From the IMG/VR virus record IMGVR_UViG_3300033075_001761: a DNA stretch of 36,433 nt, one strand, 5' to 3'. Position numbers and translations under genes: made by a program. The notes under the pieces are model-generated. The model was given only the letters and a program-made list of their open reading frames with translations. It had not been told where the DNA came from and did no database searches. The stretch comes from a virus. Taxonomy: Duplodnaviria; Heunggongvirae; Uroviricota; Caudoviricetes. Below are positions 3,249 through 30,925 of the stretch, piece after piece (within the stretch, counting starts at the first letter, position 1; each line of letters starts with the position of its first letter).

Positions 3249-3576
3249 GAAACTTACTGAATCTCTAAAGAAATTTAACGCCATGGCCAAGGCGGCGCCG
3301 GAAACCATTACGGAAAGCTCGGAAGCCGTACAGATGCTTAAAAAGCATGAGAGCGAAGTATTTACTACTTTTGCAAATGCTATCGCGGTGGCTTTGGGCC
3401 AAGTGGAGAGCATTACGGGGTCTCAATTTGAGACGGCAAAAGATGCCCAAGAGTTTGTTGAAGAAGTTATGAAGAGCATGCGTACAAAAGGAAAATCAAG
3501 CCTTATGACTGTGCTACGCAGGTTTGATCGAGTTGGCTCTCAGCAGTTCAGTGCTCAATTCAAACGTAAGCTTTAA
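3238..3576 (+). CDS. Hypothetical helical protein (112 aa)
   Basis: GGAG RBS, overlaps the upstream stop, predicted all-helical. Contains LTES/ITES motifs. Confidence 0.7.
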   Translation: MSLEKLTESLKKFNAMAKAAPETITESSEAVQMLKKHESEVFTTFANAIAVALGQVESITGSQFETAKDAQEFVEEVMKSMRTKGKSSLMTVLRRFDRVGSQQFSAQFKRKL

Positions 3577-3596
3577 AGTCTAATCAATCAGACTTT
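3575..3596. promoter_or_regulatory. Palindromic motif copy 1 (AAAGTC TAATCAATCA GACTTT)
   Basis: Imperfect inverted repeat in the intergenic gap directly upstream of the tubulin gene. Four more copies occur in the window. Confidence 0.7.
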
Positions 3597-3620
3597 TCAA
3601 ATTTCAGAGAAAGATATTGT

Positions 3621-4946
3621 ATGCGTAAAAAGTTCAAAGAGTTCACGGTTGATAATCAAAGAGTCATAAGAGTTATTCGGACTCCGAATTCTGTTAGGTA
3701 CCTTTTGGTTAGAACAATAAATAATGAAGAAATTATAGAAAAAGACTTAGCTTCAATGGATGAAGTAAGGTCTTCTTTGTCTATTGAAGTACAAGTTGAA
3801 GAAAACAAGTCAGAAAGCCATGTTGTTATTGAAGAACAACCAAAGCAAACTGAAGAAGTTAAAATTCCAAAAAAGCGTGGGAGAAAAAAGATGGAATTGC
3901 CAATGATGGAAGATCTAGAAATCCAAGGCCAAGAGAAGATTGAAGACACAAAGGAGTTTGCAGTTAAATTTGGATTCCTTGGAGTTGGGCAGGGCGGAGG
4001 AAAACTATGCCAATCTTTTTATGGATTGGGTTATCGAAGGATTTTGGCCGTTAATACTACGGTCCAAGACTTTGAAGGGCTTGAATTTAAGAGCAAGCTT
4101 TTAATTGGCGACAGCATTTCTGGAGCAGGAAAAGATCCTACAGTTGGATTTAAAGCAGCCGATTCTTCCCGTGAGAAGATTCTTAGGGCTTGTAAGGATG
4201 CTTTTGGAGATGAAGTAGAACACATTATTGTGTGTACAAGTACGGGAGGAGGCTCTGGGTCTGGTTCAACGCCAGTAGCCATTGAAGTTGCGCAAGAATA
4301 TTTGAAATCTATTGGAAAAGAAGCAAAGGTTGGCGTGATTGCGTGTCTTCCAAAATCTTCTGAAGGCCAGAAGTGTGTGGACAATTCAAATCAGCTACTT
4401 CAAAAAGTTAAGCCTCTCGTTGAACAAAAGATTATCTCTCCATTCATCATTTGTGATAATGAAAAGATTTTGAAAATGTACCCAAAAGTTTCGATTGCAA
4501 AGTTCTATGAAGCTGCGAACAGAAGTATTTCTGCAATGTTCAGCTTATTTAATGAGTTGTGTGCAAAGAATTCGGCTTATCAGACTTTGGATGTTGCAGA
4601 TTATCGTTCTGTTCTAAATTCTGGCGTTATGATTTTCGGAGCAAACACAATCCAGGATGCTTCTAAATCTGAAACATTGATTGCCGAGAGCGTTGAGAAG
4701 AATATGAAGAATGGTCTTTTAGCTTCTTTGGAGCTGAAGGGAGCGACTCATGCAGGAGCAATTTTGATTGCTTCTAAAGCCATGCTTGAGTCGATTCCTC
4801 AAAGCGCATTGGACTTGAGTTTCCAAGCAATCAATAGAGTCCTTGGCGGGTCCGTTGTTCTTCATAGCGGAGTTTATGAAGGTCCAGAGAGTCTCGAAAC
4901 AAAGGCTCTTGTTTACACAATGATTGGCGGGCTAAAAGCTGGCTAA
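3621..4946 (+). CDS. Tubulin/FtsZ-family GTPase (phage tubulin-like) with N-terminal extension
   Basis: T1 loop FGFLGVGQGGGKL, GAGKDPTVG, signature TSTGGGSGSG, IICDNE, T7 loop LDVAD and terminal strand LVYTMIGG. About 110 aa precede the GTPase domain and there is no C-terminal tail. Confidence 0.93.
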   Translation: MRKKFKEFTVDNQRVIRVIRTPNSVRYLLVRTINNEEIIEKDLASMDEVRSSLSIEVQVEENKSESHVVIEEQPKQTEEVKIPKKRGRKKMELPMMEDLEIQGQEKIEDTKEFAVKFGFLGVGQGGGKLCQSFYGLGYRRILAVNTTVQDFEGLEFKSKLLIGDSISGAGKDPTVGFKAADSSREKILRACKDAFGDEVEHIIVCTSTGGGSGSGSTPVAIEVAQEYLKSIGKEAKVGVIACLPKSSEGQKCVDNSNQLLQKVKPLVEQKIISPFIICDNEKILKMYPKVSIAKFYEAANRSISAMFSLFNELCAKNSAYQTLDVADYRSVLNSGVMIFGANTIQDASKSETLIAESVEKNMKNGLLASLELKGATHAGAILIASKAMLESIPQSALDLSFQAINRVLGGSVVLHSGVYEGPESLETKALVYTMIGGLKAG

Positions 4947-4983
4947 GAAAATTGACATTTTTTCTTATGACCTTAATGCTTAT

Positions 4984-5700
4984 ATGGCAACGATTCATGG
5001 AAGGATTGTTGCCGCGCAAAAATACGTTTTAAACAAGAGTGCTTCTATTTTTCTTGGAAACGTAAAATTGAATGGACCCAAAGATGAGTTTGGTAAAGAG
5101 TATCTAGATTCGCTTAAAATAAAGAAAATAGATGGAGATGATCCAAAGTTTGTAATTATTTTGGATGCATCTTTTTCGGCTTCATTCTCTACTGCACAGG
5201 CAAAAGGCGCAGTTGTTATATACGTTCAGGATAGTGAAAACAAAGATCTTTTAGAAGTTTTGTATAGGTACCAGCCATTTGCTATGGACTTTCTTCCTGT
5301 AAACCTTCCTATAAGCACCTTCTTTAAGAAGGTAAGAACAGATGAAATTGAAGCAATTAGAGAGCGAAATCAAAACAGCTATTCAAAACTAAAGTCTGAA
5401 CTTATTTCTTTAGGCGTTCCTTCAGAGCTTGGAGAGCAGAAAATTACATCAACAGAAGATGTTGGATTTAAGATTTTAAGATCTGAATTAGGATTAGGAG
5501 AATATCCTCCTCATTGGAAACCAGCCATCGCAAAATGGCAAACAGGAACGGATTTAAAGAACATTGCCAATGAAAACATTTTATCTAGAATACTTTTCGA
5601 TCCAAAATATACGGGATGGAAGAATATAGCTTCAGACAGAGAAGATGCTGATCCATCAATTATTGAAAATGTAAAAGAGTTTATGGAAGCGCTATTATGA
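4984..5700 (+). CDS. Putative neck/tail-completion protein (HK97 gp10-like C-terminal motif)
   Basis: RSELGLGEYPPHWKPAI resembles the E(F/Y)G...P(F/H)xxPA motif of gp10-like neck proteins. It lies upstream of the tail terminator. Confidence 0.45.
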   Translation: MATIHGRIVAAQKYVLNKSASIFLGNVKLNGPKDEFGKEYLDSLKIKKIDGDDPKFVIILDASFSASFSTAQAKGAVVIYVQDSENKDLLEVLYRYQPFAMDFLPVNLPISTFFKKVRTDEIEAIRERNQNSYSKLKSELISLGVPSELGEQKITSTEDVGFKILRSELGLGEYPPHWKPAIAKWQTGTDLKNIANENILSRILFDPKYTGWKNIASDREDADPSIIENVKEFMEALL

Positions 5701-6107: not shown

Positions 6108-6108
6108 C

Positions 6109-6834: not shown

Positions 6835-6870
6835 TATTTACTAAGTAACTCAAATTACGGAGTCTGGAAA

Positions 6871-8688: not shown

Positions 8689-8708
8689 TTGCTGAATGAT
8701 TTTGTTCT

Positions 8709-10261: not shown

Positions 10262-10282
10262 ATCTAATTGAAAGAGGATTGT

Positions 10283-11857: not shown

Positions 11858-12315
11858 ATGAGGCTGGTTTTCTAGATAAGATCAAGTCGTCAATTGAAAA
11901 TCCTGCAAAGTTTAAAAAGCTTGGGCAGGATTTAAAATTTAGCCAAGCAAAAAACTCTAAAGATACATTTGTATATCCTCAATATATAAGTGCATGCCCT
12001 GATAAACTTACTGAAAAAGAGCAGCTTAAAAAAATTGATAGTTTTGTTAAGGAACAAAAAATAACAGAACCTACCCATGAGGTTTTCTTTAGCCCATCAG
12101 AAAATGGGGAAGATATTTTTGTAAATGTAAAAATAATAGATCCAAATGTGAAGGCATCAGAAGTTAAGGTAGACTGCAATAAGATGTTTTCTATTTTGAA
12201 AGCATTTATAGGAAAGCTTTGTTTTGGTTCTAAGAAGAAGCCAGAGGAGCCAAAAAAGGTTGGAGATACGCCAGAAGAAACTAAACCAGTAGAAGATACA
12301 AAAGAAATTATCTGA
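11845..12315 (+). CDS. Start-less -1 frame ORF (156 codons); probable C-terminal extension of 10283-11857 via the A9 run
   Basis: Frame 1 is open from 11845 to TGA at 12313-12315 (KKSLDEAGFLDKIKSSIENPAK...KEII*). It fills the gap to tube 2 and has no ATG/GTG/TTG near its 5' end. It is not in the supplied ORF track. Confidence 0.7.
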   Translation, partial: KKSLDEAGFLDKIKSSIENPAKFKKLGQDLKFSQAKNSKDTFVYPQYISACPDKLTEKEQLKKIDSFVKEQKITEPTHEVFFSPSENGEDIFVNVKIIDPNVKASEVKVDCNKMFSILKAFIGKLCFGSKKKPEEPKKVGDTPEETKPVEDTKEII

Positions 12316-12322
12316 GGAACAA

Positions 12323-12913
12323 ATGGCAAGATCTCAAATCCAAGATTATTTAGCGGTTAACAAATTCCTTGTATTGGATGTTTCTTTAACACTTCCGCCA
12401 GTGTTGCTTCCTGTTTTTGGATTCAGATCTGTTTCTATTCCGCAACTGTCAGTTACATATAGACAGATTAAAGAGGGTAATTATGAATACCCAAGGTATG
12501 CAGGGGTAGAGAGGGCTGAAGTTAGTAATGTAACTTTGGAGCAAGGAGTGTCCATTATAAATAGTGATTTTTATGATTGGATACGGAAAGCAGTAACCGG
12601 AAATATACCAGCAAAGAATCTTTTGATTATACAGTTTCACAGGGCAGCCAACGATGCTTTAAAGGCCCAAGGAGGCATAGCTGCATTGCCTGCAACATTG
12701 TTTAGCGCACCTGTATCTGTGGCAGGGCGTTTGGCGTCTGGGTTCAATCTAGAGTTTATTTCAAGACTTCCAGGGCGCGGATACCTTTTAAAGAATTGTA
12801 GGCCCACGAGCTATAGACCTGGAACGGATTTAAATGCAGAGTCATCAGAGATAAGTATTGCTTCTCTAGAGTTGGTTGTGGAAGAGTTTGACGAATTCAG
12901 CTATGGGATTTAG
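12323..12913 (+). CDS. Tail tube protein 2/tube initiator (gp19/gp54/Afp5-like)
   Basis: KFLV...GFRSVSIPQLSV...IKEGNYEYP...NVTLEQGV...DFYDWI...LKNCRPTSY...DLNAESSEISIASLELVVE. It is a paralog of tube 1 with a ~40-aa insertion. Confidence 0.85.
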   Translation: MARSQIQDYLAVNKFLVLDVSLTLPPVLLPVFGFRSVSIPQLSVTYRQIKEGNYEYPRYAGVERAEVSNVTLEQGVSIINSDFYDWIRKAVTGNIPAKNLLIIQFHRAANDALKAQGGIAALPATLFSAPVSVAGRLASGFNLEFISRLPGRGYLLKNCRPTSYRPGTDLNAESSEISIASLELVVEEFDEFSYGI

Positions 12914-12916
12914 CAA

Positions 12917-13357
12917 ATGAATGACTTAGATAAAATGTTCAAAGAGCTTTCTGGCAGCGAGTTAAAAGAGGCTGTTGGGGATAATGCCGTAGATAACATG
13001 GTTACAGCCATGTCTAGGGTTGTTGAAGTTGAATTATCCATGTTTATTTCCAAACTTTTGGTTATGAACGTAGGAAAGTTTTCGTTCTCGTACGAAGATC
13101 CTTCTTACTTAGAATTCAAGAAAAACTTCTCAGACATTATTGCTAGATATCAAGTCATGGATGCCGAAGAAAAGGGCGATCTTTATCAAAAGATTGAAAA
13201 CATGTTTAAAGATATTTTTACAGAAAAATACGCTGCATTAGGGCCTCAGTTTGCAGAGACGACGGGAGCTTTGTATGCGCAGCAGATGGTTAATATATTG
13301 AAAAGCATGAGCATCCAGGCAAACGTTGAGCTTTATGCTCCAAAGAGAATTTACTGA
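12917..13357 (+). CDS. Hypothetical protein (146 aa)
   Basis: ORF tightly coupled to its neighbours, predicted helical, no family recognised. Confidence 0.7.
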   Translation: MNDLDKMFKELSGSELKEAVGDNAVDNMVTAMSRVVEVELSMFISKLLVMNVGKFSFSYEDPSYLEFKKNFSDIIARYQVMDAEEKGDLYQKIENMFKDIFTEKYAALGPQFAETTGALYAQQMVNILKSMSIQANVELYAPKRIY

Positions 13358-13563
13358 TGGAGCAAAAGTCTAATCGATTGGACTTGTTTGACCAAAAGGT
13401 TCGGATTAACTTCTGGCTTTCTAGAAGGCTTTTTGACGATGTGAATGATATATGTAGGGAAGAAGAAAAGAGCATCAGCGATGTGATACGCGAAGCTCTT
13501 AAGGACTACACTAGAAAATACAAGATTAAGCAAAAATCCATCGAGTCAAAGTTACAAACATAA
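13357..13563 (+). CDS. Ribbon-helix-helix (CopG/Arc/MetJ-like) DNA-binding protein
   Basis: KVRINFWLS (alternating beta-strand), RRLFDDVNDICREEE (helix A), KSISDVIREALKDY (helix B with the S.S..IR.AL motif). Confidence 0.85.
   Translation: MEQKSNRLDLFDQKVRINFWLSRRLFDDVNDICREEEKSISDVIREALKDYTRKYKIKQKSIESKLQT
13364..13385. promoter_or_regulatory. Palindromic motif copy 2 (AAAAGTC TAATCGATTG GACTT) over the 5' end of the RHH gene
   Basis: Near-perfect inverted repeat occupying approximately codons 3-10 of the RHH gene. Confidence 0.7.
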
Positions 13564-13996
13564 ATCCATTTACAGACAAAAGAATCGCATATTTTGTTAT
13601 TACTAAAATATGGCTTGGGTTATTCCAATCCGAGCAAAGACCTAAAAAGGCTAGCGGACGGAATATTAAGAAGCTCATTGTAGCAACAACCATGTATCCA
13701 GGGATTGTAATTGCATACCAAAAAAGTCTTAGTATTTGAGTGAACAGAATAAATAAGTTGATACATAGAGCCATAAGTTGACCAAAACAAAAGATTACTG
13801 ATGCCGCAAGAGGAGCTACAGTTAAACAAAATACAAGTATAAGGAACATTTTTAAAGTGGGGTCTGAAAAGCTTGAAAGAACTTCTGGCATAATAGAATT
13901 CCAAGCGCCAGTGAACAAGCCTATAGTCCACAAGACGCATTTCCAAAAAATTCCCAATAGTCCGAATAGTCCTTGGATGATTTCTGAGAAAGTCAT
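13526..13996 (-). CDS. Integral membrane protein (156 aa, several TM segments), opposite strand within the tail module
   Basis: Start revised to the ATG at 13996 (AGGAGG RBS at 14001-14006). Almost entirely hydrophobic (FGLLGIFWKCVLWTIGLF..., MFLILVFCLTVAPLAASVIF...). Confidence 0.75.
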   Translation of the reverse strand: MTFSEIIQGLFGLLGIFWKCVLWTIGLFTGAWNSIMPEVLSSFSDPTLKMFLILVFCLTVAPLAASVIFCFGQLMALCINLFILFTQILRLFWYAITIPGYMVVATMSFLIFRPLAFLGLCSDWNNPSHILVITKYAILLSVNGFMFVTLTRWIFA

Positions 13997-14149
13997 ACTG
14001 CCTCCTATATATTCATTACTCACAAGATATATATCGGGCGGTCAACGCAAAACTTTAGGTCTTTTTGGTTAGTAATTTCACTTTTTTTTGCGTAATATTT
14101 ACGTCAAGGCTAACAAAGGCTTAGCCGTTTAAATTTCAAGGAGATATCA

Positions 14150-17754: not shown

Positions 17755-17764
17755 GGAGTTTCTT

Positions 17765-20380: not shown

Positions 20381-20382
20381 AC

Positions 20383-20841
20383 ATGCCAACGCTTGTAACA
20401 ACAGTTACCGGAACGCAGGGGACTAAAGAAGTTTTTAAGAACGAATTTAGAACGCCTATACCTGCTTTAACAGTTCCCATACCTTCATTGCCTTCAGTTT
20501 CGTTGCCAACTTTACCATCTCTTCCATCTTTACCAGATGGCGTTAATATTACATTGCCTACATTTAGCTTGTCTGTACCAACGCCATCATTGCCATCGAT
20601 TTCTATTCCATCACTTCCTTCTCTTCCGGCATTGCCTGAATTTTCAATACCAGAAGGTGCTGGATTTATCCTTCCAGCACTTCCTTCCTTGCCAGTTCTT
20701 GCATTATCGATCCCAACGCCATCATTGCCATCGATTTCTATTCCGTCACTTCCTTCGTTGCCTATTCCTCCTATTCCTGATTTTCCTCAAATAGGGGGAG
20801 ATCCTACGGTTGTTTCTGTAACAACAAGAACTGAAGCATGA
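20383..20841 (+). CDS. Pro/Ser/Leu-repeat protein (PSLP repeats) following the spike gene
   Basis: Translationally coupled ORF containing many P-S/T-L/I-P units. Confidence 0.7.
   Translation: MPTLVTTVTGTQGTKEVFKNEFRTPIPALTVPIPSLPSVSLPTLPSLPSLPDGVNITLPTFSLSVPTPSLPSISIPSLPSLPALPEFSIPEGAGFILPALPSLPVLALSIPTPSLPSISIPSLPSLPIPPIPDFPQIGGDPTVVSVTTRTEA
20578..20756 (+). repeat. 44-bp direct repeat pair (20578-20621 and 20713-20756, 1 mismatch)
   Basis: ccaacgccatcattgccatcgatttctattcc(a/g)tcacttccttc occurs twice, 135 bp apart and in frame. Confidence 0.95.
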
Positions 20842-20857
20842 TTTTAAGGAGAAACAC

Positions 20858-21403
20858 ATGGCAATAGCTCCATCAGGCACATGGGAATCCAGTTATGATG
20901 AAAAGCTTAAGGACTCTTTTAAAGTGGCCATTGACGCTGTAACAAGCCTTTTGGCTTCTCAGACATTTTGGCAGTCATGGTGTTTTTCAAACACAACTGG
21001 ATTTGCGTCTACAAATCCGTTGTTTGTAACATCTGCAACATTTAGCCAAGCGGCATTTAATCCATTGCCATTTGGTTCTGGAGTTCCTTCTACAATGTTG
21101 GCAACAGCTTGGAAGAACTATATGGCAGCGGCAGTTTGGGGAATACCTCCTCCAGCGCCTCCTTTTTCTATTATACAATCGGCAGCAACCGATCCGGCTT
21201 CTTTGTCTTCTGCACATGGAATTTTGACTGCGGCATTGGCGGCAGAGTTTTTGTTATTGCCCGCTCCAGATGCATTTGCGGCAAAGACGGCAGCTATTGC
21301 TGGATTTTTTAGAACGGCAACATTAAGCACAAGTATTTTACTAAGTGGATTGAGCACTGGCGGTCCTCCCGCTCCAATTACATTGGTTGTTCCTGCTGGT
21401 TAG
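20858..21403 (+). CDS. Ala/Pro-rich hypothetical virion protein (spike-associated position)
   Basis: AAGGAG RBS, located between the spike and gp25 genes. No PAAR motif seen. Confidence 0.7.
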   Translation: MAIAPSGTWESSYDEKLKDSFKVAIDAVTSLLASQTFWQSWCFSNTTGFASTNPLFVTSATFSQAAFNPLPFGSGVPSTMLATAWKNYMAAAVWGIPPPAPPFSIIQSAATDPASLSSAHGILTAALAAEFLLLPAPDAFAAKTAAIAGFFRTATLSTSILLSGLSTGGPPAPITLVVPAG

Positions 21404-21481
21404 GTTTTGACCTAGACTCTTTTTAATAAACAAAATTTAGTCCATAATTGCGTTACATATTTTTTACGCAAGGCGGAGCAA

Positions 21482-21847
21482 TTGGATACGGTTATAGGAA
21501 TTAGTTATCCATTTAGAAAAGAGAATGGCCAATTTCCCGCCATGGAAGAGAATGTTGACGCCGTAAAATCTGACCTTTTAGGATTATTTAGGACACCTAT
21601 GAGATCAAGAGTCATGCGGCCAACTTATGGAACTATTGTAGATTCTCTTGTGTTTGAAAACACTGGACCAATTCTTGAAGCCAGAATTGAACGAAGTGTA
21701 AAACAAGCTATTTCCATCCATGAGCCAAGAGTTAAGGTCAATGCATTTGAAATCGATACGCAAAGAAATTTAGTTGTTGTTGACGTACAATATAGCGTTC
21801 AAGGAATTTCTGATAACGTACAAATTGAATTAGAATCGGCTGGATAA
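21482..21847 (+). CDS. Baseplate wedge protein gp25/W-like
   Basis: TTG start with GGAG RBS. GISYPF...VKSDL..LFRT..RSRVMRPTYG...IERSVKQAISIHEPRVKV. Confidence 0.92.
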   Translation: MDTVIGISYPFRKENGQFPAMEENVDAVKSDLLGLFRTPMRSRVMRPTYGTIVDSLVFENTGPILEARIERSVKQAISIHEPRVKVNAFEIDTQRNLVVVDVQYSVQGISDNVQIELESAG

Positions 21848-21869
21848 AAGTCCAATCGGTTAGACTTTT
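21846..21869. promoter_or_regulatory. Palindromic motif copy 3 (AAAAGTC CAATCGGTTA GACTTTT)
   Basis: Intergenic, between gp25 and baseplate J, ending at the GAGG RBS. Confidence 0.7.
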
Positions 21870-21884
21870 GAGGATTGAAACAAA

Positions 21885-23918
21885 ATGGCAGTAGAAGATC
21901 TGAATAAAGTCTCTTATACAGACCAGGATTGGCAAACAGCCATTGATGGTATTCAGGGGTTTTTGCAAACAAATTATGCCGATACATATAATGATTATGT
22001 CGCCGGGAACATGGGCCAAGCTCTTATAGATATCCTTGGGTATGCAGTTCAAAATTTGAATTGGTTGCTCAATAGGAAAGTTACAGATCTTTATTTCCCT
22101 ACTGCCGTAACTCCTAATGCTGTTTCCAAGATTTCAAGAATGCTTGGATACAAACCAAAAGGAGCTACAGGTTCCATTGTTAGCCTTACAGTTACATTGC
22201 CTTCTGGGCCTTATTTGTTTCCAGTTTCTATTACAAAAGGGTTTCAATTCCAGGGACCGCAAGGATTGATATTTGAGTATAGGCAGACAACTCCAGTGAC
22301 TTATAATCCTGGAGACACTGTAAAAACATTTGAAGTTCGTGAAGGCGAAAGTAAAACATTAAATTTTGTGTCTGACGGAACTACAAATCAGATTTTTAAG
22401 ATTTTGAACATTGGAACAGACAAGTATGTTGAGCAAGGAACTGTTGAAGTAAGGGTAAATGGAGAACTTTGGACTGAATATGACATCATTCCTTTTTCAA
22501 CGACAAACTCTTATGAAACAAACCTTTTGGCATCAGTTCCATTTGTTAAGTTTGGAGACTCGGTTCAGGGCAATGTTCCTGCTGCCGGAGCCGCCATTGA
22601 AGTAAAATATATTGTTGTGAGTGGATTTAGAGGAAGGATTGTAACCGAATCGATCAAGAAGGCTGTTAGACCTTTGGTATCGAATTTTACATCAATTCCG
22701 TTTTCTATTTCTCAGCCAGCGGCTTCTGCCGGAGGCGATGATCCTGAAGATCTTCGTTCGATTGTTGTAAACGCTCCAAAATTCCAAAGAACACAAGATC
22801 GGGCGATTACAAAAGGGGATTATGATTTCTTATCAAACCAATTCCCAAACGTAGCCAAAGGCGACGCTCAGTGTTTAAGAAGCGTAACTGGAGATATCTA
22901 TATAAATGGGCAGTATTCTGCTATTTATGACACTCTTAATCTGAATAATGAAATAGCATATTCGCTGTCTGGGTATGGAGATATTCCGGCAGAAGTCGTT
23001 ACAGCGTCAGGAGCAATGCTGTCTATCTCGGGAACAATGCCTGGATTTACAACTGTTCAGAACAATGTGACTTCTGTGATCAATGCCCAAACGACTTTAA
23101 TTACAACAAGAACATCTCAGTCGAATGCTCAATTAGCAACTCTGTTAAGCATTCCTTCAGCATCCGCTGTAGCCGTAACAGTAAGCGGATACATGCTTGA
23201 TATAAACTCTTACGTAACAGAAATCATTGGTGTGAACACAAGTGCCTCTGGATTTGGAGCCGTTTCTGGATATGTAAATTCTGTGTCTGGAGATCTTCTT
23301 CAGATCGACTCTGATTTAGTGAGTATTTCTGGGTTTGCTACAAACACTCAAGTTGCTGCAAACGCATCGTCTTATAGCCAAACAGTAAGCGGACATTTGG
23401 CTAATATTTATGACTATCTTGATTACCACTTCGCAGATGGTTGTAGAGGAAATTTGGTTCAGGTGTCTATTGTATCAAAGGATTCTAATAGAAAGTTTGT
23501 AGACCCAGCTCCTTCAACTTTAACATCTTTGAAGACATATTTGGATGAAAGAAAAGACGCTGTGCATACACTTTCGGTCATTTCAGGAACAGCTAGAGTT
23601 ATTGATGCAAATGTATTGATTGAACTAAAGCTTACAGATGCGGCAGACCCAGAAGACGTTGTTGGACGTGTTTCTGATGTGATTCAGAAATCTGACGTTG
23701 AGCCTTTAGGAATCTTGGTTGAGAGGGAATACAACGACTCTCTATATTTGTCTGAGATCTATGATGCAATCGACTCTGTTGTAGAGTCTTTTGAAATCGT
23801 AAATACAAATGTAATTATACAAGGGCCTGTTCAATATTTAGACTCTCGTGGAAATCTTATATGCCCAGATGGGTATGTAATTCAGACCGGAACAATTACC
23901 ATTACGCTTTTGGATTAA
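21885..23918 (+). CDS. Baseplate J/T4 gp6-like wedge protein with a large internal helical insertion
   Basis: GQALIDILGYAVQNL...LYFPTA...SRMLGYKP, SDGTTNQIF, VKFGDSVQG..P, GGDDPEDLRSI...RAITKGDY. An ~180-aa xSG-repeat insertion precedes the C-terminal domain. Confidence 0.9.
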   Translation: MAVEDLNKVSYTDQDWQTAIDGIQGFLQTNYADTYNDYVAGNMGQALIDILGYAVQNLNWLLNRKVTDLYFPTAVTPNAVSKISRMLGYKPKGATGSIVSLTVTLPSGPYLFPVSITKGFQFQGPQGLIFEYRQTTPVTYNPGDTVKTFEVREGESKTLNFVSDGTTNQIFKILNIGTDKYVEQGTVEVRVNGELWTEYDIIPFSTTNSYETNLLASVPFVKFGDSVQGNVPAAGAAIEVKYIVVSGFRGRIVTESIKKAVRPLVSNFTSIPFSISQPAASAGGDDPEDLRSIVVNAPKFQRTQDRAITKGDYDFLSNQFPNVAKGDAQCLRSVTGDIYINGQYSAIYDTLNLNNEIAYSLSGYGDIPAEVVTASGAMLSISGTMPGFTTVQNNVTSVINAQTTLITTRTSQSNAQLATLLSIPSASAVAVTVSGYMLDINSYVTEIIGVNTSASGFGAVSGYVNSVSGDLLQIDSDLVSISGFATNTQVAANASSYSQTVSGHLANIYDYLDYHFADGCRGNLVQVSIVSKDSNRKFVDPAPSTLTSLKTYLDERKDAVHTLSVISGTARVIDANVLIELKLTDAADPEDVVGRVSDVIQKSDVEPLGILVEREYNDSLYLSEIYDAIDSVVESFEIVNTNVIIQGPVQYLDSRGNLICPDGYVIQTGTITITLLD

Positions 23919-23929
23919 GGGAAAATTAA

Positions 23930-24373
23930 ATGTCGAATTTAACAGATTTTGAAAACATTCCTTGGCCAGAAGAGGATGCCGATCCTTTTTTTGATGATTT
24001 TGAAGCTATGATTCAAAGGATTGACATACTTACGCACCACTTAAAGCTGGCGAAAAACTTTTTTGTTGTGGGCGGAGGTACTGTTGCATGGAACTCTGGA
24101 ACTGGAGTTTTGTCTTGGACAGCCGATTTTTCTATTCCAATTCTGCATTATGGGTACTCTTTAAAAATCCAATATGGCCCAGACAATACCAATAGAGTTG
24201 CAGCGATCCCTGATGGGTCTTGTTTGGTTGTGGATATTCCTTCTGCTTTGCAAGCAGACCAAACCGTAAATGCCGTTGTAACAACGCAATTAACGCCACT
24301 TAGCGATACGCAGTTTGTTATCGGATATAGGTATGGAACAAGTCTATATCTTAGAAACTTAGGTACGTACTAA
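23930..24373 (+). CDS. Hypothetical baseplate/fibre-associated protein (147 aa)
   Basis: Beta-rich ORF between the J-like and I-like genes. Confidence 0.6.
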   Translation: MSNLTDFENIPWPEEDADPFFDDFEAMIQRIDILTHHLKLAKNFFVVGGGTVAWNSGTGVLSWTADFSIPILHYGYSLKIQYGPDNTNRVAAIPDGSCLVVDIPSALQADQTVNAVVTTQLTPLSDTQFVIGYRYGTSLYLRNLGTY

Positions 24374-25233
24374 TGGGGTTTAGCTCTAACGGCACAGGTT
24401 TTGGCCACTTTCCATTTGGGAACTTCACTTTTGGAAGCTCCAATACTGGCGAAAACATGATCATACGGAGCTTTCCCGCAACGTATTTGGAAGATGATTC
24501 AAGTGGGCTTTTGCTTACATATTTGAAAACAATTTCAAACAGCGTGAATGAAATTAAGCAAAAGATTTTAGGAGTTGAAGATCTTGTAGATCCTTTGATG
24601 GTTAGAGAAGATATTCTTAGGCACCTAGGAACAACTATAGATACGGTTGTGGATGAAGCCGAGCCAAAAGAATTTGCCAGATCCTTGGTTAACAATGCGG
24701 TTCTTTTTTACAGAATAAAAGGAACAGAGGATTCTTACAGGCTTCGTGGAAAGATTTCTGGATATGACGTTGATGTATCAAATCTGTATCACATTTATCC
24801 AATGTACGTTCCATTTTTAGACCCTGATGATGTTATTGAAATACCTCCTGGAAGTGGAGAGTTTTTTACGGCTATAGAGCCTGGCGGAGTGTCTGGAATC
24901 CCAACCGAAGCGGAATGTGGATATTGTTTTACAAGTTTTATTAAAATCAATTTTACGGTTGTAAAATCGCTTCCTCCATCTTCTGTAAACTATATTGACA
25001 GGCTAATTAGAAAATTAAGTGATATCATTCCGATTCACGTTAGAGATGTTCTTTATGAAATTTTCATCAACATTAAAATTGACGAAAATCAATACATGGC
25101 GATGGAGTTTGAAAATGAAGAGCGTCTTTATGTTCCTATGCATGTGTTCCATAATTTTGATGTGATTCCAGCAGATACCCTCAGCACAGATTTGCATGGG
25201 TATATACAAGCTGAAATGGAAGTTTTGCCATGA
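24373..25233 (+). CDS. Baseplate wedge protein, P2 gpI/T4 gp7-like
   Basis: LLTYLKTI...EDLVDP...DILRHLG...RSLVNNAVLFYRIKGT. Confidence 0.8.
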   Translation: MGFSSNGTGFGHFPFGNFTFGSSNTGENMIIRSFPATYLEDDSSGLLLTYLKTISNSVNEIKQKILGVEDLVDPLMVREDILRHLGTTIDTVVDEAEPKEFARSLVNNAVLFYRIKGTEDSYRLRGKISGYDVDVSNLYHIYPMYVPFLDPDDVIEIPPGSGEFFTAIEPGGVSGIPTEAECGYCFTSFIKINFTVVKSLPPSSVNYIDRLIRKLSDIIPIHVRDVLYEIFINIKIDENQYMAMEFENEERLYVPMHVFHNFDVIPADTLSTDLHGYIQAEMEVLP

Positions 25234-25240
25234 GGTGTTT

Positions 25241-25687
25241 ATGACAGTTTTTATCACTGGCGTTGTAACTGACAAAGGCCGAGAGATTTTTGCAAAATCT
25301 TTTGGCAATGTTGGCGGATTTCCTGTTAGCTATGCAAAGTATTTTAAGATGGGAGAGGGCGGTTATATTTTTAACGGGATAGGGAATGTACCTAAAACGC
25401 CTAATCCGGCATTGACCGATGTTGAGGCTACAGGAGCGCCTGGGGATTATTTTTTCCAGAAAGACTTTAGTGCAGCAGATATTGTGTTTATTGCTCCATC
25501 TACAATTAGGTTTCGATGTAAGGCTTTGCCTACAGAGGCTAACGATGATGGGTTAGGTAATAGTCCAAAATTCTTTGAAATTGGTATTTTCGATCAAAAC
25601 GATAATATGATGGGGTATTGTACATTCGACGAACAAACGAAGAATGCTTCAAAGACTATTACAACGTTTGTGCAGTTCTATTTCTAA
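25241..25687 (+). CDS. Tail-collar/fibre-attachment protein (DUF3751/P2 gpH N-terminal-like)
   Basis: Start revised to the ATG at 25241 (GAGGTG RBS). VTDKGREIFAK...YFKMGEGG...FFEIGIFDQNDNMMGY. Confidence 0.7.
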   Translation: MTVFITGVVTDKGREIFAKSFGNVGGFPVSYAKYFKMGEGGYIFNGIGNVPKTPNPALTDVEATGAPGDYFFQKDFSAADIVFIAPSTIRFRCKALPTEANDDGLGNSPKFFEIGIFDQNDNMMGYCTFDEQTKNASKTITTFVQFYF

Positions 25688-25700
25688 GCTGAGGTAAGCC

Positions 25701-27095
25701 GTGACTGTTTTACTAGAGCAACAAATAAATCCTCAGTTCATCAAAACCAGGTGGCAGGAACCTTATGTATCGGCAGCACTTAATTCTAAAAGCTTTAAAA
25801 CTCTTCCTCGCGGTGTTTATCGCGGCTTTGATTTGGTTCCGGGTCCAGGAGCGAAAGAGATTACAGTATCTACGTTTGACGGATTCCAGGGAGCAAGCGG
25901 ATACGCAAGTGGTGCATATGATGCCGCCAGCGGATGGAGTGTTGCCGTCCACGAAAGCCTCGACGGATTCGGAACCACATTAGCAGTTCAAGAAGGGCCT
26001 TCTGGATCGTTTGTATTTAACTTGAGCGGATATGCTGGCGGAAGTGTCTATATGGCGCTTGACGTTGATTATCAGCTTGGCTTTGCAACAAATGCACAAG
26101 TAAAGATCGTAGATAGTTTGGAGCTAGATTCTGAACCTACGCTCATTTGCCTTGGCAGAGTAGATGTTCCTGGCGTTGGACCAATTACAACGCCTAACGT
26201 TGTTTATAACGACGCAAATTATCCTCGTTTAAAGCCATACGCAGATAAAAACAAAGATGGATTCATGTCAGCTTCGCAGGCTGAAGTTGTGGACATTCTT
26301 TCCACAGCTCCAAATGCAGCAAATACATTTGAAGTTGAATACATTGTAGTTTCATCTGGGCCACAGATTGTTACGATCCCTGGAGCCAATACATATGTTG
26401 TGAATGGAGAAGACCTTCTTATCTTTAAGAACGGTCTCAAAATGCACAAAACAAGGGACTATACAGAGATTGATGACGGCGGAGGATTTGGGACTACGGT
26501 TTCGTGGATCTCTAGTTTGAATATTGGCGACAGGATTGTGTTCAGAGGACAGCAATATGCTGTGTCTTTGACTAATACATTAAATGTTCTTGATGAAAAC
26601 GCTCTTGTTCAAAGCAACGTTGTGCATTTCAACTTTCAAGGACTCGGGGTTTCTGTTGTTCCAAACGGACCTGGATCTGTAAATGTTCAAATTCCAAGCG
26701 CAACGTCTTCAGGAGCCTCTCGCTCAAAGAAAAACGAAACTGGTTCTACCATTCCGGCATTTAGAGCTGTGAATTTAAAGACAGATGGAACCATTGAGCT
26801 GTGCAATCCTGTTAACCTAACACACAAGGTTCTTGGTCTTACAGCGAATGATATTGCCGATGGGGACTTTGGGCTTGTTGCCTTAGATGCAAATTTGGCA
26901 CTTGCAGTAAGCGGACTTGGGTTCCTTGTTGGAGACGATGTTTACGTAGATCACACTGGTCTAGGAACATTAACAAACGTGGCTCCAAACCCTATGGCAG
27001 GACAAGTTATTCGAGTTGGAATTGCGGATTGTACAGACAACACAGCATCATCTACTGCTGTAGACTTGGTGTTTGATAAGCAGAGGTTAGTGTAA
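25701..27095 (+). CDS. Modular tail fibre/baseplate-distal protein
   Basis: GTG start. GVYRGFDL N-terminus, one L.IF.NG...DY.E beta module, and a C-terminal domain shared with 29789 and 30986. Confidence 0.7.
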   Translation: MTVLLEQQINPQFIKTRWQEPYVSAALNSKSFKTLPRGVYRGFDLVPGPGAKEITVSTFDGFQGASGYASGAYDAASGWSVAVHESLDGFGTTLAVQEGPSGSFVFNLSGYAGGSVYMALDVDYQLGFATNAQVKIVDSLELDSEPTLICLGRVDVPGVGPITTPNVVYNDANYPRLKPYADKNKDGFMSASQAEVVDILSTAPNAANTFEVEYIVVSSGPQIVTIPGANTYVVNGEDLLIFKNGLKMHKTRDYTEIDDGGGFGTTVSWISSLNIGDRIVFRGQQYAVSLTNTLNVLDENALVQSNVVHFNFQGLGVSVVPNGPGSVNVQIPSATSSGASRSKKNETGSTIPAFRAVNLKTDGTIELCNPVNLTHKVLGLTANDIADGDFGLVALDANLALAVSGLGFLVGDDVYVDHTGLGTLTNVAPNPMAGQVIRVGIADCTDNTASSTAVDLVFDKQRLV

Positions 27096-28345
27096 TGGCG
27101 CAATACCTAGTTAAATATTTAGACAGCACAGGGAAGACTACGATTGTCGATTCGGCAACCGATACATTCCAATTTCCCGCAATTATATTAGATGGCGCTT
27201 ATTTCGATAAAACAAACATTGCGCAGGTTAGTGGATTAAGTGGACTTGACGCCGAAATAGCTGGAGTGAGTGCAATTTTTGATGGCCATGTTGTACAAAA
27301 CGACGCAGCCTTTGCAGACATTGCGCTTACGATGAGTGGGTTTGATGATTCTCTGTCAAATTTGGCTGGCGATGTAAACTTCATAATGGGAGATGACCCA
27401 AAGGAAGAATTTTTTGTAGCTGTTTCTGGGCAAGTATTGTGTAGCGTTACTGGGTTCGACTTCTCTCCAGACAATGGGATTCCAGACATTCAAATCTTTA
27501 AAAATGGTTTGAAGATGAGAATATCTCCATCTGGAATTCTTGAATCAGGAACAGATGTAAAGAAAAACTCAGATGTTCAGATTGAATTTTTTATCCCACT
27601 AGTTGCCAATGATAGGGTTACTATTAGACGCGAGAGGGGAGCTTTGCTTTCAAATCCTAAAGCTTATTTCAGAGATGATACTGATGGATTGATGGGTAAG
27701 GCTGTTTTGTTGAGTGATAGATATCTATTGGGAAATAATTCTTTGATTGCTTTTAGAAATGGAGTTTTGATCCATAAAACTTCATCTCTAGGAGTTCCGG
27801 CAGATAGATATGAAGAAACTACCGATTCTTTTATCACAGTAGGAGCAAATCTTGTTTCTACAGATGTTGTGACTTCGGTTCATAAGAACGTTGCTTCGAC
27901 TTCTAGGTTTTACCAAGAAGGAGCTTCTGCGTTTTCAATTACAGTCCCAAGTTATACAACAGGTTCTGATAGGCTTATGGTTTTCAGAAATGGCCTTCTT
28001 TTAAATTCCGATGGTCTTGGAACCTCAATTCAACAATATACAGAAACATCTTCTACGCAGGTAACATTTGGAGTTCTTGTAGAGCCTGATGATTTGACTG
28101 CATTTGAAAATCTTTCTTCTGTTCAATGGAGAGAGGACCAGATTGTTGCAAGCGGAACGGTTGTAAACTTTTCTAATCCATACACACTTGGAAACGAAAG
28201 ATTACTTGTCTTTAGAGACGGAGTTTTGATGTTTAATTCGGGAGTTCTTGGAGATCCTATTGATAGATATTCAGAAACTTCAACAACTTCGATAACTCTT
28301 GCATCAGCGGCGAGCGGAGAAGTGTTCTCTGCTATATATTTGTAA
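27095..28345 (+). CDS. Virion structural protein with four tandem ~70-aa beta modules
   Basis: IQIFKNGLK, LIAFRNGVL, LMVFRNGLL and LLVFRDGVL repeats; the last three are followed by Y.ET. Confidence 0.75.
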   Translation: MAQYLVKYLDSTGKTTIVDSATDTFQFPAIILDGAYFDKTNIAQVSGLSGLDAEIAGVSAIFDGHVVQNDAAFADIALTMSGFDDSLSNLAGDVNFIMGDDPKEEFFVAVSGQVLCSVTGFDFSPDNGIPDIQIFKNGLKMRISPSGILESGTDVKKNSDVQIEFFIPLVANDRVTIRRERGALLSNPKAYFRDDTDGLMGKAVLLSDRYLLGNNSLIAFRNGVLIHKTSSLGVPADRYEETTDSFITVGANLVSTDVVTSVHKNVASTSRFYQEGASAFSITVPSYTTGSDRLMVFRNGLLLNSDGLGTSIQQYTETSSTQVTFGVLVEPDDLTAFENLSSVQWREDQIVASGTVVNFSNPYTLGNERLLVFRDGVLMFNSGVLGDPIDRYSETSTTSITLASAASGEVFSAIYL

Positions 28346-28348
28346 TTG

Positions 28349-28370
28349 AAAATTCCAATTGATTAGACTT
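28349..28370. promoter_or_regulatory. Palindromic motif copy 4 (AAAATTC CAATTGATTA GACTT)
   Basis: Intergenic, immediately upstream of the GGAG RBS of the 28381 gene. The reverse complement reads AAGTC TAATCAATTG GAATT. Confidence 0.6.
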
Positions 28371-28380
28371 GGAGCGAGAC

Positions 28381-29778
28381 ATGGCGATTAAGAAGAACCA
28401 GATTCAGCAGACACCTACGGTAATCCAGGAAGGCTCTCAGCCAGCAACGGGCGCAAACAAAGGTGCTTTTTACACCTCTGATGTTTCTGGTGTTACCGAG
28501 GGAATGTACGCCGATGATTTGGGACGTGCTATCCAGATAACAAATGGTGGCGAAATTGCCATGCCGTCTACATTCAATGGAGAGAATACAGTTACGGCTG
28601 GTTCTCAAATTTTCAAAGAGAAGTCTGGAAACAAGCTTCGTTTTAGAAGGATTGTAGCTGGAACAAATGTAACCGTTACTGAGGGAGCTGATAGTATAAC
28701 GATTGCGTCTACAGGAGGCGGCGGTTCTGGAGAAGCTAATACTGGTTCAAATGTTGGAGTCGGGTCCCAGGTTTTTAAGCAAAAATCTGGAATTTCTTTA
28801 CAGTTCAGATCCTTGGTTGCTGGGTCAAATGTAACGCTTACTCAGGGCGTTGATACCATTACAATTGCTTCTACTGGAGGAGGGTCTGGAGAGGCAAATA
28901 CGGCGTCTAATGTTGGCTCTGGAGCTGGTATTCTTTTCAAGCAAAAGACTGGTGTTGATCTTGAGTTTAAACGTATTGCTGCTGGAACAGGGATCTCTAT
29001 TACGAATGGAGTTTCGGATGTAACCATATCTTCTACTGGAGAGGCTAATACAGCTTCAAATGTAGGAACTACTGGCGTTAACACTGCTGGCGTATTTAAA
29101 GCAAAGTCCGGTGTAGATCTTCAGATGAGAAGAATTATTGCTGGAGCAAATGTCTCAGTTACAGAAAATACAAACGACATTACAATCGCTGCTACGGCTG
29201 GTTCTGGAGAAACAAATACAGCTTCAAATGCTTCTGCCGGAACAGGAACTGGATTGCTGTTTAAAGGAAAGGTCGGAGTTGATCTTGTATTTAAAAAGCT
29301 TTTGGCTGGCTCTGGCGTTACTTTAACAAACGGAACTGACGACGTTACCATCGCTGCTACTGGAGGAGGCGGTGGGCATGAGACTCAAATTCTATCTTTT
29401 GACAGCGGAAATATTGTTGTAAAAGCTTCCGGCACAACGGCGGATCTTGCTTTGGTAACAGCTACAAAAGACTTTAATGCTGGCGGAGCTTCTACGTTGA
29501 TTATGAACAAGCCAACTTCTGTTTGTTATCATTCAATCAATGTGACATTTACGAGTGCAGAAACAACAGGAAGAACAGAGCTTCGATTGGAGTGCCCAGA
29601 TGCCAATGGAGCTACGGCTGAGGCAAAGGCCATGCGTGTGTTTGCCATTAGAATCAATGCTACATACGGAGTTGGAGCAACAGCATCTACGTTCGTTCTT
29701 GTTTCTGGTACAACATTCAGAACAACATTGACTGGTTATACATCGGCTCAAGAGCAAAAAGCAGTGTTCCAATTCTAA
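28381..29778 (+). CDS. Fibre protein with five ~55-aa tandem repeats
   Basis: Start at ATG 28381 (GGAG at 28371-28374). Repeat unit GEANT.SNVG...F K.K.G..L.F..L.AG.NV..T...ITI.ST. Confidence 0.8.
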   Translation: MAIKKNQIQQTPTVIQEGSQPATGANKGAFYTSDVSGVTEGMYADDLGRAIQITNGGEIAMPSTFNGENTVTAGSQIFKEKSGNKLRFRRIVAGTNVTVTEGADSITIASTGGGGSGEANTGSNVGVGSQVFKQKSGISLQFRSLVAGSNVTLTQGVDTITIASTGGGSGEANTASNVGSGAGILFKQKTGVDLEFKRIAAGTGISITNGVSDVTISSTGEANTASNVGTTGVNTAGVFKAKSGVDLQMRRIIAGANVSVTENTNDITIAATAGSGETNTASNASAGTGTGLLFKGKVGVDLVFKKLLAGSGVTLTNGTDDVTIAATGGGGGHETQILSFDSGNIVVKASGTTADLALVTATKDFNAGGASTLIMNKPTSVCYHSINVTFTSAETTGRTELRLECPDANGATAEAKAMRVFAIRINATYGVGATASTFVLVSGTTFRTTLTGYTSAQEQKAVFQF

Positions 29779-29788
29779 GGGATGGTAA

Positions 29789-30631
29789 ATGTCTGATTTA
29801 GTTTTTTCAGCACGATTTACTCCGAACAGCTCGGTCACAATATCGAGTACAGTATTTGATGTTGCTGCAAGCGTTTTTGATGGTACGGGCGTTTTTTCTG
29901 GGTTAGACGTAGCTGTAAATGACGCTGTTTATTTGGATGCATTTCCAAGCATTTCTGCGCCAAACACAATTGCAAGATTTAAAGTGACCCAAATAAACTC
30001 TCAAGGACCTTCGTCAGTAAACGTTAGGCTTACGTGGGATGATTCTGGAACTGTCGTAGATCCTGGAGAGTGTGCTGGTACACAAGGATTTATTTCAAGA
30101 GCAACGGCTACAGACAGATTTGCATTCCATGCGGCTCCTACACTGCATTCGATCCCTGATTACGTAATTCAATACTCAAGGAACAAAGAGCTTGTTTCTA
30201 CTATTGAAGGGAATCTTGGAGGCGGAGGCGGTGGAACGAGCTTAACGAAAGTTATGCAAAATAGTGGAACAACCATTGCTGCCGGAAAGCCAGTAGCCAA
30301 AAAGCCTGATGGAACTATTATTTTGGCTGATTCTGACGGAGTTAATACACAAAACTTTTGCGGAATATCTTCGACATCTATTGCTCCGTCAGCAACGGGA
30401 ACGATCCTGATTCCTGGACAAAATATTGCGGGTGCCATTACTGGGCTTGGGTTTGCGCCTGGAGATTCCGTGTTTTTGAACGAAAGCGGTGGATATTCAA
30501 ATACAACATCAGGATTTTCCGGCGATAATGATACGATTTGGAAGATTGGAATGGCTGATTGCGCCGCTGGACTTGCAAGCCCAACGGCTACAGATATCAT
30601 CATCATGACCGAAAAACTCATATCTCCTTGA
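29789..30631 (+). CDS. Virion structural protein with the shared C-terminal decoration-like domain
   Basis: Poly-Gly linker followed by MQNSGTTIAAGKPV...DGTIILAD...GISS..IA...G. Confidence 0.7.
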   Translation: MSDLVFSARFTPNSSVTISSTVFDVAASVFDGTGVFSGLDVAVNDAVYLDAFPSISAPNTIARFKVTQINSQGPSSVNVRLTWDDSGTVVDPGECAGTQGFISRATATDRFAFHAAPTLHSIPDYVIQYSRNKELVSTIEGNLGGGGGGTSLTKVMQNSGTTIAAGKPVAKKPDGTIILADSDGVNTQNFCGISSTSIAPSATGTILIPGQNIAGAITGLGFAPGDSVFLNESGGYSNTTSGFSGDNDTIWKIGMADCAAGLASPTATDIIIMTEKLISP

Positions 30632-30644
30632 GGATCTTCAATTT

Positions 30645-30872
30645 ATGGAATCGAATTTAATTCAGTTTTCAACGCTCAAAAAACGCAGGCAAGGCAGGCC
30701 AAAAAAAGAATCTGCTAAAATCAACGATGATGCTTTTTTGGAAAAAAATAAAGAAATGATGGAAAAAATTAAAACACATTGCGTTTCTTTTACGCAATGT
30801 GTTGAAAAGATTGGGCTTGATAACGGTCAAGATATTGGAATCCAAATTACATTTGCTTTTGAACAACCTTGA
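30645..30872 (+). CDS. Small protein with a basic AT-hook-like motif (RRQGRPKK)
   Basis: GAGGA RBS and a 75-aa ORF between structural genes. Confidence 0.6.
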   Translation: MESNLIQFSTLKKRRQGRPKKESAKINDDAFLEKNKEMMEKIKTHCVSFTQCVEKIGLDNGQDIGIQITFAFEQP

Positions 30873-30925
30873 TTTTTTGAGAACGTTTTTGGTGTAATAT
30901 AATTAAGTCTAATCAATTAGACATT
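30869..30925 (+). promoter_or_regulatory. Possible sigma70-like promoter followed by palindromic motif copy 5 (30905-30925, AAGTC TAATCAATTA GACATT)
   Basis: TATAAT at 30898-30903 with TTGAGA at 30877-30882 (15-bp spacer), or TTGATT-18 bp-TGTAAT. The palindrome begins 2 nt after TATAAT. Confidence 0.55.

Follow-up and report, generated by a model that had tools for sequence, protein, structure and literature searches.

What reads a short palindrome that recurs between the genes of a T4-like phage, and what does it do there? The question is raised by a stretch of 36,433 nucleotides (called the window here, in its full length) from the tailed-phage record IMGVR_UViG_3300033075_001761. Pfam matches assign the window to the tail and baseplate module of a T4-like myovirus, and a tubulin is encoded there as well. 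The initial annotation reported five copies of a palindrome of about 20 bp and proposed that they form either a network of operators, controlled by a ribbon-helix-helix (RHH) protein of the phage, or a centromere. We favor a different reading of the same sites: they would be orphan 20-bp operators for a host-encoded regulator of the Trp-repressor/HisR (YerC) family and would mark the boundaries of sub-operons. We put the probability of this reading at about one half (0.5).

A genome-wide set of palindromes at gene boundaries

We searched the window with the pattern AAGTCYAATCRATTRGACTT, allowing up to three mismatches. There are exactly five matches, each with zero to two mismatches, compared to a mean of 0.01 in 100 dinucleotide shuffles of the window. 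All five copies reported by the initial annotation are real, and its coordinates were right to within 1-2 nt. The consensus, AAGTCYAATY-RATTRGACTT (the dash separates the two halves), is a palindrome of about 20 bp with two fixed half-sites, (AA)GTCYAATY.

Each copy in the window lies at or near the start or the end of a gene. The first base of copy 1 (AAGTCTAATCAATCAGACTT, 3576-3595, one mismatch to the pattern) is the final base of the TAA stop codon of the open reading frame (ORF) at 3238-3576, and the ATG of the tubulin gene (3621) is 25 nt downstream. Copy 2 (AAGTCTAATCGATTGGACTT, 13366-13385) is the sole perfect match. It begins 9 nt past the TGA stop of the ORF at 12917-13357 and spans codons 4-10 of the RHH ORF. 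Copy 3 (AAGTCCAATCGGTTAGACTT, 21848-21867, one mismatch) is immediately 3' of the TAA stop of a gp25-like gene and 17 nt ahead of the ATG (21885) of a gene like gp6/baseplate J. Copy 4 (AATTCCAATTGATTAGACTT, 28351-28370, one to two mismatches) is 5 nt past a TAA stop and 10 nt ahead of the ATG of a fiber-like gene at 28381; a terminator-like hairpin (28313-28333) is located just 5' of it. Lastly, copy 5 (AAGTCTAATCAATTAGACAT, 30905-30924, one mismatch) is within the 113-nt gap that precedes the gene at 30986, and a TATAAT (30898-30903) ends 1 nt before it.

The five copies belong to a much larger set. Contigs of the phage from two Logan assemblies, identical where they overlap, were joined into 115,641 bp of continuous sequence; the genome is about 129 kb (129,001 bp), of which 115.6 kb were thus read and about 13 kb were not. 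Both assemblies break at merged coordinate 101,327 (the end of contig L018, near 82,090 in window numbering). The joined sequence contains 10, 15 and 18 copies of the palindrome at up to one, two and three mismatches, respectively, whereas first-order Markov simulations gave 0, 0.03 and 0.16. Among the copies beyond the window are those at L009:6553, L005:9706, L006:7812, L006:11437, L011:10679, L016:12922, L016:17245, L018:7445, L194:9970 and L195:4258.

The sites are not placed at random. Among the first 16, 14 are within 50 nt of a gene boundary, compared to a random fraction of 0.19 (P=7e-9). Gaps between neighbors are 2.3-9.8 kb (mean 6.0 kb), with a coefficient of variation of 0.39. Random placement gives 0.92, and a value as low as 0.39 was seen in none of 20,000 simulations. 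The even spacing persists when sites are instead drawn at random from among the gene junctions (P=3e-4). Together with the conservation of positions described below, the spacing of about 6 kb argues that the placement of the sites is under selection, although it does not tell the mechanism.

Recognition as DNA and exchange of the site between relatives

A palindrome next to a stop codon could act in RNA, as a weak intrinsic terminator, an RNase processing site, or a 5'- or 3'-stabilizing hairpin between cistrons. The sites are indeed just past stop codons, and in many cases a TTTT comes next (GACTTTT). There is also a mild strand asymmetry: over 82 phage sites, the central dinucleotide of the sense strand is CA 34 times and TG 14 times, which could be counted in favor of a role in RNA. 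(The 82 sites come from this phage and from contigs L058, L074, L141, L101, L038, L047 and L099, most of which are described below.) However, the stems are weak and AT-rich. Eight sites that we folded gave -2.4 to -10.9 kcal/mol; the z-score reached -2 in one of the eight and was no better than -1.6 in the others, and at three of the eight the arms were left unpaired in the minimum-energy fold. The palindromes do not have the structure of an intrinsic terminator, a stable G+C-rich hairpin followed by a U-tract, and a terminator scan called none of the five window sites terminator-like. In addition, the same element precedes promoters in bacteria.

The pattern of variation is more telling. On the sense strand of the 82 sites, wobble-compatible T..G and non-pairing C..A combinations each occur 11 times, and the variable half-site positions Y4 and Y8 vary independently. 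Because T..G and C..A are equally frequent, selection acts on the half-site sequence GTCYAATY and not on pairing, as would be expected for a symmetric protein dimer on duplex DNA. We conclude that the sites are DNA-level elements and not RNA hairpins or terminators, and we regard a function in RNA as highly improbable.

Two promoter-related roles were tried and rejected. A site 1-25 nt before a start codon leaves no room for a promoter, and the TCTAAT within the palindrome lacks the A that is conserved at the second position of a -10 box. The palindrome is also not an adjunct of a T4-type late promoter: TATAAATA occurs only four times in 101 kb and never at the sites. Sigma-70-like promoters and terminators were no more numerous than in shuffled sequence, and the sites have no consistent geometry relative to promoter-like sequences in the phage.

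Relatives of the phage indicate that position and sequence of the sites are separable. A search of INPHARED gave no near match to the phage, and contigs from four sequencing runs with related strains (X3-X6), aligned to positions 12000-31500, yielded only pieces of 300-580 bp at about 90% identity. The most informative relative is the IMG/VR contig IMGVR_UViG_3300017963_000456 (G004; L185/L186), which has 58% GC and is syntenic with the window from the tubulin gene through the fibers at 25-55% amino-acid identity. G004 has no copy of the palindrome found in this phage. It has a palindrome of its own, G[CT]GAACGCGCGTTCGC, at 3798, 11986, 20820 and 37373 (shuffle mean 0.33). The first is before the tubulin gene, the second is after the homologue of ORF 12917-13357, and the third is between gp25 and gp6; these are the junctions orthologous to those of window copies 1, 2 and 3. 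The G004 palindrome set also occurs on other contigs of its sample, with seven further copies on 3300017963_000286. In L187, whose gp25 is 77% identical, the palindrome of this phage is kept right after the gp25 stop codon (GTCCAATCGATTAGAC, L187:1055-1070), and L188, a 55% relative, has yet another palindrome at the gp25 junction. The positions of the sites are thus conserved and their sequence is exchangeable between relatives. Relatives have replaced the sequence and kept the positions, which suggests that the presence of a site at these places is important.

The comparison with G004 also bears on the protein that the initial annotation had named as the binder. The RHH ORF (13357-13563, + strand) is Arc/CopG-like (Pfam RHH_1, E=3.7e-4; PHROG Arc-like repressor, E=4e-5). 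According to that proposal, the RHH protein binds the palindromes, represses its own gene and tunes the sub-operons of the virion module. RHH dimers bind short symmetric or repeated sites, and the only perfect copy of the palindrome overlaps the first codons of this gene. However, G004 has an RHH homologue at the same position whose DNA-facing beta-strand reads RVRVNFWL, compared to KVRINFWL in this phage. The contact residues (R-R-N-W and K-R-N-W, which we count as the same) do not track the site, since the two palindromes are entirely different. In G004, the palindrome lies about 205 nt 5' of the RHH gene and directly follows the stop codon of the gene before it. Copy 2 likewise follows the general rule of hugging the stop codon of the upstream gene, and the fact that it overlaps the start of the RHH gene may be incidental. 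Moreover, the phi29-like phages and contig L101 described below carry the palindrome and are without an RHH homologue. The RHH protein is a credible small protein of a DNA-binding type that is not tied to the palindrome, and we consider it a very unlikely binder. The other candidate of the initial annotation, a 227-amino-acid ORF (1967-2650, minus strand) described as a winged helix-turn-helix protein, fares no better: neither Pfam nor PHROG gives a match for it, and G004 lacks a counterpart. What survives of the proposed operator network is its more general part. With independent half-sites, weak RNA hairpins and enrichment at junctions, the palindromes have the properties expected of targets for a dimeric DNA-binding protein at the boundaries of sub-operons.

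The palindrome and a Trp_repressor-family gene outside this phage

The same palindrome occurs in phages that are not related to this one. Scans of IMG/VR with a 20-mer and a 16-mer revealed no network; the 13 matching contigs that were re-scanned have one or two copies each. A scan of JGI metagenome contigs yielded 120 loci, several of which have dense sets of the 16-bp core GTCYAATYRATTRGAC. Five are from phi29-like podoviruses, recognized by genes for a protein-primed polymerase, a gp16 ATPase, a connector and a phi29-type capsid protein. The number of copies is 17 on L058 (in 14.8 kb), 12 on L074, 10 on L085, 9 on L141 and 6 on L038. Seven perfect copies of AAAGTCTAATCGATTAGACTTT are present on L101, which is phage-like and has a GroEL-like gene, and a set of the palindrome is also carried by L047, a further T4-like contig. 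On these phage contigs the site is often a few nucleotides 5' of a Shine-Dalgarno sequence, whichever strand the gene occupies. Apart from the capsid genes of L047, no protein was detected in common between this phage and the palindrome-bearing contigs. Unrelated phages thus share the palindrome, which points to a common factor, for example a protein of the host. Two copies of the palindrome are also present on L004/L096, binned as a giant-virus metagenome-assembled genome (MAG), where they are located at 626 and 829, about 200 bp apart within a repeated unit, and each copy is followed by GGGAGG.

A candidate for this factor came from bacterial contigs among the loci. L060, L063, L100, L131 and L151 are bacterial, with frr, an ABC transporter, gatC/gatA, tyrS and pheS. 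Pairs of GTCCAATYRATTGGAC bracket a gene for a 133-amino-acid protein of the Trp_repressor family (PF01371, E=2e-9; in L100, the gene is at 542-943), and this gene-bracketing core is present in L100/G015, G017, G018, L060 and L063. The gene maps to MAGs of Patescibacteria. In G015 (0.5 Mb), the core occurs 17 times, compared to none for a reversed control, and 6 of the 17 are no more than 2.6 kb away from the gene. G017 and G018 have just two copies each, and these flank the gene at distances of about 35 nt on its upstream side and about 13 nt on its downstream side.

The link between gene and palindrome extends to paralogues. A match to the gene family was found in 14 of 31 genomes related to G015, with up to seven matches per genome. 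Nine further homologues in other genomes each have a perfect palindrome of their own, 14-18 bp long, upstream (9/9) and in most cases also downstream (7/9); GCTATCTTTAAAGATAGC, GGTCTCATTAATGAGACC and GGGTCCGTTAACGGACCC are examples. One such palindrome, GGTTCAATCAATTGAACC, differs from the phage site by one base per half-site. Within their own genomes, these palindromes recur in sets of 3-18 copies, and that of G327, the sole one compared across genomes, is absent from G335 and G333. The start of the recognition helix reads SRTT in all five proteins that are beside GTCCAAT and SKAT beside GTTCAAT; MPKT, SPDT, HYNT, SPST, TRVT, SSRT and SSNT accompany other palindromes. Site and recognition helix thus change together across paralogues, within the Patescibacteria genomes only. 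This family of Trp-repressor-like proteins of about 130 amino acids, with multiple paralogues and up to seven matches in a genome of 0.5 Mb, is represented on contigs L172-L183, L154 and L156, from Patescibacteria genomes G015-G335.

What is known of the family fits with sites of this kind. TrpR and HisR bind 20-bp palindromes, hisR is often autoregulated, and binding by HisR has been shown in vitro (PMC9413887). The phage sites are likewise palindromes of about 20 bp with two fixed half-sites, and in the Patescibacteria genomes the site is beside the regulator's own gene and covaries with the helix. The nearest solved structures of the candidate binder are 3G1C, 3FRW and 3KOR (HisR-type). A homodimer model of the protein scored 0.69, compared to 0.00 for the best control, with agreement between runs of at least 74% and a pLDDT of at least 62; the mark for a homodimer was reached by 21 of 30 solved homodimers and by none of 23 monomers. 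The success of the model may reflect likeness to solved TrpR dimers rather than proof of dimerization. We found no description in the literature of this regulator family, of its palindromes, or of their occurrence in Patescibacteria or their phages.

Three independent comparisons make the regulator the best candidate binder: its gene is bracketed by the site, site and helix change together across paralogues, and unrelated phages share the site. Six-frame profile searches found no TrpR-like ORF in the 115.6 kb of this phage or in the other phage contigs, and the palindromes in phages are therefore orphan sites. We suspect that a homodimeric helix-turn-helix protein reads the sites on double-stranded DNA, and that this protein is a Trp-repressor/HisR-family regulator supplied by the host, probably a member of the Patescibacteria (also called the candidate phyla radiation, CPR). 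Bound dimers would sit right after stop codons and just ahead of the next ribosome-binding site. By analogy with stoperators (see below), we speculate that a bound dimer might serve as a roadblock or insulator that sets the amount of read-through into the next block of genes. As a secondary effect, replicating phage DNA could soak up the host regulator.

The sites in G015 suggest what such an element could do in the host. Copies flank unrelated housekeeping genes: they are found between nusA and an H+-PPase gene, between an ABC transporter gene and gatC, between frr and the regulator gene, and at the 3' ends of topA and pth. Again they are close to stop and start codons, in some cases as part of a longer palindrome. 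An arrangement of this kind resembles punctuation between transcription units more than it does a metabolic regulon. A LexA box was considered and rejected as an explanation. The core of the G004 palindrome, CGAAC-N4-GTTCG, equals the Gram-positive/actinobacterial LexA-box consensus, but nusA, the H+-PPase gene, gatC, topA and pth, which the G015 sites flank, are not SOS genes.

Bracketing of the gene by its palindrome also recalls REP sequences, which bracket RAYT genes, and raises the possibility that the palindromes are selfish or recombinogenic junction elements (REP-like miniature elements, or linkers between modules) that are spread among hosts and phages by a system that includes the TrpR-like gene, with regulation as a secondary matter. 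TrpR-like genes bracketed on both sides, as many as seven matches in a genome of 0.5 Mb, copies that hug stop codons in host and phage and are sometimes inside longer palindromes, and the presence of one element in unrelated phages would all be in keeping with this idea. However, the protein has only the helix-turn-helix (HTH) fold, with no nuclease or transposase domain. Sites in the phage are spaced far more evenly than insertions at randomly chosen junctions would be, and positions are conserved across a deep divergence even though the sequence has been replaced. There is also no signature of insertion at the gp25-gp6 junction, where the gap is 45 nt in G004 and 37 nt here. We consider selfish spread improbable as the main explanation.

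The other proposal of the initial annotation was that the sites are a centromere. In such a scheme, dispersed centromere-like sites would be positioned by the phage tubulin (3621-4946) in the manner of TubZRC. A copy is directly 5' of the tubulin gene, and G004 has both the tubulin and a palindrome in that place. The tubulin-family gene is conserved in its own right: window 3621-4946 and G004:3844-4887 are 44% identical and occupy the same place in the tail module. Since it is kept in a distant, high-GC relative, the gene is a stable part of this T4-like lineage. Type III partition systems (TubZ-TubR-tubC) are similar in that a DNA site is upstream of a tubulin-family gene. However, known tubC centromeres are clustered iterons beside tubR-tubZ, bound by TubR, whereas here we see a single copy 5' of the tubulin gene, with the others spread over the whole genome at intervals of 2.3-9.8 kb. 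No TubR-like protein was identified, and, among the called genes of loci covering 115.6 of the roughly 129 kb, there is no ParB-family Pfam match of the kind expected for a ParB/KorB-type system. Because the sites are single over the whole genome, and also occur on phi29-like contigs with no detected tubulin homologue and in bacterial chromosomes, a role as centromere is hardly credible.

A more serious competitor to a host regulator is a dimeric DNA-binding protein of the phage itself that has escaped recognition, encoded either by one of the small ORFs that match no family or within the 13 kb of the genome beyond the part that was read. Identity of the phage site with the patescibacterial operator would then be due to horizontal transfer of the binder or to convergence. 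The phage has many small ORFs without annotation. Relative to G004, the whole palindrome changes and the positions stay, as would be expected from co-evolution of a phage protein and its sites. The dyad repeats of Cluster O mycobacteriophages, discussed below, have likewise been assigned to unknown phage proteins (PMC4351075). Against this, three unrelated types of phage carry the palindrome and have no detectable protein in common. In L058, which is about 15 kb and has the full phi29-type set of core genes, the small ORFs are without a Pfam DNA-binding domain, and the search for TrpR-like ORFs in 115.6 kb of this phage was negative. We think that a phage-encoded binder is unlikely, if a serious alternative.

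Several observations weigh against a patescibacterial regulator as the binder. The shared palindrome is the sole link between this phage and Patescibacteria. DNA of L058, compared to 61 CPR genomes related to G015, gave two matches, which is the level expected by chance, and RmlB look-alikes were taxonomically uninformative for the host. Bacterial copies of the half-site are nearly all GTCCAAT, and those in this phage are mostly GTCTAAT. Among roughly 390 Patescibacteria genomes that were sampled, only G015 has a full set; G017, G018 and G381 hold two copies each. The sites at housekeeping genes in G015 may be general junction elements and not a classical regulon. The 13 kb that were not read could hold a phage-encoded binder, and the difference in palindrome from G004 is as compatible with a phage protein that co-evolves with its sites as it is with a change of host. 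Finally, a T4-like phage of about 129 kb would be unusual on an ultra-small host cell.

If the host regulator does bind these sites, then the phages would be an example of lytic phages that build sites for a host regulator into the structure of their operons. A bolder version is that a tubulin-encoding T4-like myovirus of about 129 kb, several phi29-like podoviruses and other phages all infect one lineage of ultra-small Patescibacteria and have tied the junctions of their genes to a Trp-repressor-family regulator of the host for which they carry no gene. We offer this version tentatively, as a possibility with the odds leaning against it. If it is true, the paralogue-specific palindromes would be an address code shared by host and phage that controls read-through between phage sub-operons. 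The palindrome would also be a marker for assigning phages to uncultivated Patescibacteria hosts from sequence alone.

Three other features of the phage genome are worth recording. Between the two freshwater samples that contain the phage, an RtcB-like gene varies in length (391 amino acids at L009:12360-13858 and 423 at L010:5885-7383) and the gap upstream of it is different, a strain-level difference in a region that is otherwise identical. A 1488-amino-acid ORF 5' of the portal gene (L194:3264-7730) has Pfam matches to MJ0330_N, two intein splicing regions and an HNH domain, and may be a large terminase gene split by inteins. Right after the gp23-like capsid gene is a 711-amino-acid ORF (L005:712-2847; window -9233 to -7098) with faint matches to LAGLIDADG and to an N6/N4-methyltransferase, and inside it is a copy of the palindrome with three mismatches (L005:1366).

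Comparison with known systems

Short palindromes after stop codons, and a gene that is flanked by its cognate palindrome and varies together with it, are also features of REP/RAYT systems. RAYTs are HUH transposases, whereas the TrpR-like protein here consists of the HTH domain only. Evenly spaced sets of REPs are not known from phage genomes.

Lytic phages with dispersed palindromes have been on record since Cluster O mycobacteriophages were described, but neither a binder nor a function had been assigned to the palindromes. Corndog and its relatives have 17-bp dyad repeats, more than 30 copies in about 70 kb, which are predicted to bind a dimeric protein (PMC4351075). The likeness to our phage is clear: one short palindrome is dispersed through a genome that does not look temperate, often in short intergenic gaps or near gene starts, and mostly independent of promoters. 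The Cluster O repeats differ in having invariant arms of 7 bp, a 3-bp spacer and another sequence, and about a third of them are intragenic. A link to a family of host proteins and sharing with unrelated phages are unreported there; here we have a candidate family of binders, sharing between phages, and conservation of positions. What is new in our analysis is the candidate binder with its paralogue-specific palindromes, the conservation of positions despite replacement of the sequence, and the case against the RHH protein.

For a mechanism, the stoperators of Cluster A phages (L5, Bxb1) provide the best precedent. As they are cited in PMC4351075, these are 20-30 repressor sites in short intergenic regions. 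Stoperators act on elongating RNA polymerase and not on promoters, which is the mechanism that we judge most likely for the phage palindromes; by analogy, bound dimers may work in a similar way. The sites themselves are of a different kind. Stoperators are asymmetric 13-14-mers, oriented with transcription and bound by the immunity repressor of a temperate phage, whereas the sites here are palindromic and their binder is probably host-encoded. No repressor or integrase family is represented among the called genes of the loci that were read (115.6 kb).

E. coli TrpR and the HisR (YerC) of Firmicutes are most similar with respect to the candidate binder. They are small, intertwined HTH dimers with 20-bp palindromic operators, consensus sequences differ from lineage to lineage, and in many cases the regulator gene has a site of its own ahead of it (PMC9413887). 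In contrast to the patescibacterial family, with its paralogues that each have their own palindrome, TrpR and HisR are single-copy regulators of a few amino-acid operons, and their sites overlap promoters. The sites described here are at operon-internal junctions and at the 3' ends of unrelated genes, and there are dozens of orphan sites in phage genomes with no detected regulator gene. Thus, the closest described feature is the dyad repeat of Cluster O phages, the closest mechanism is that of the Cluster A stoperators, and the closest family of binders is TrpR/HisR.

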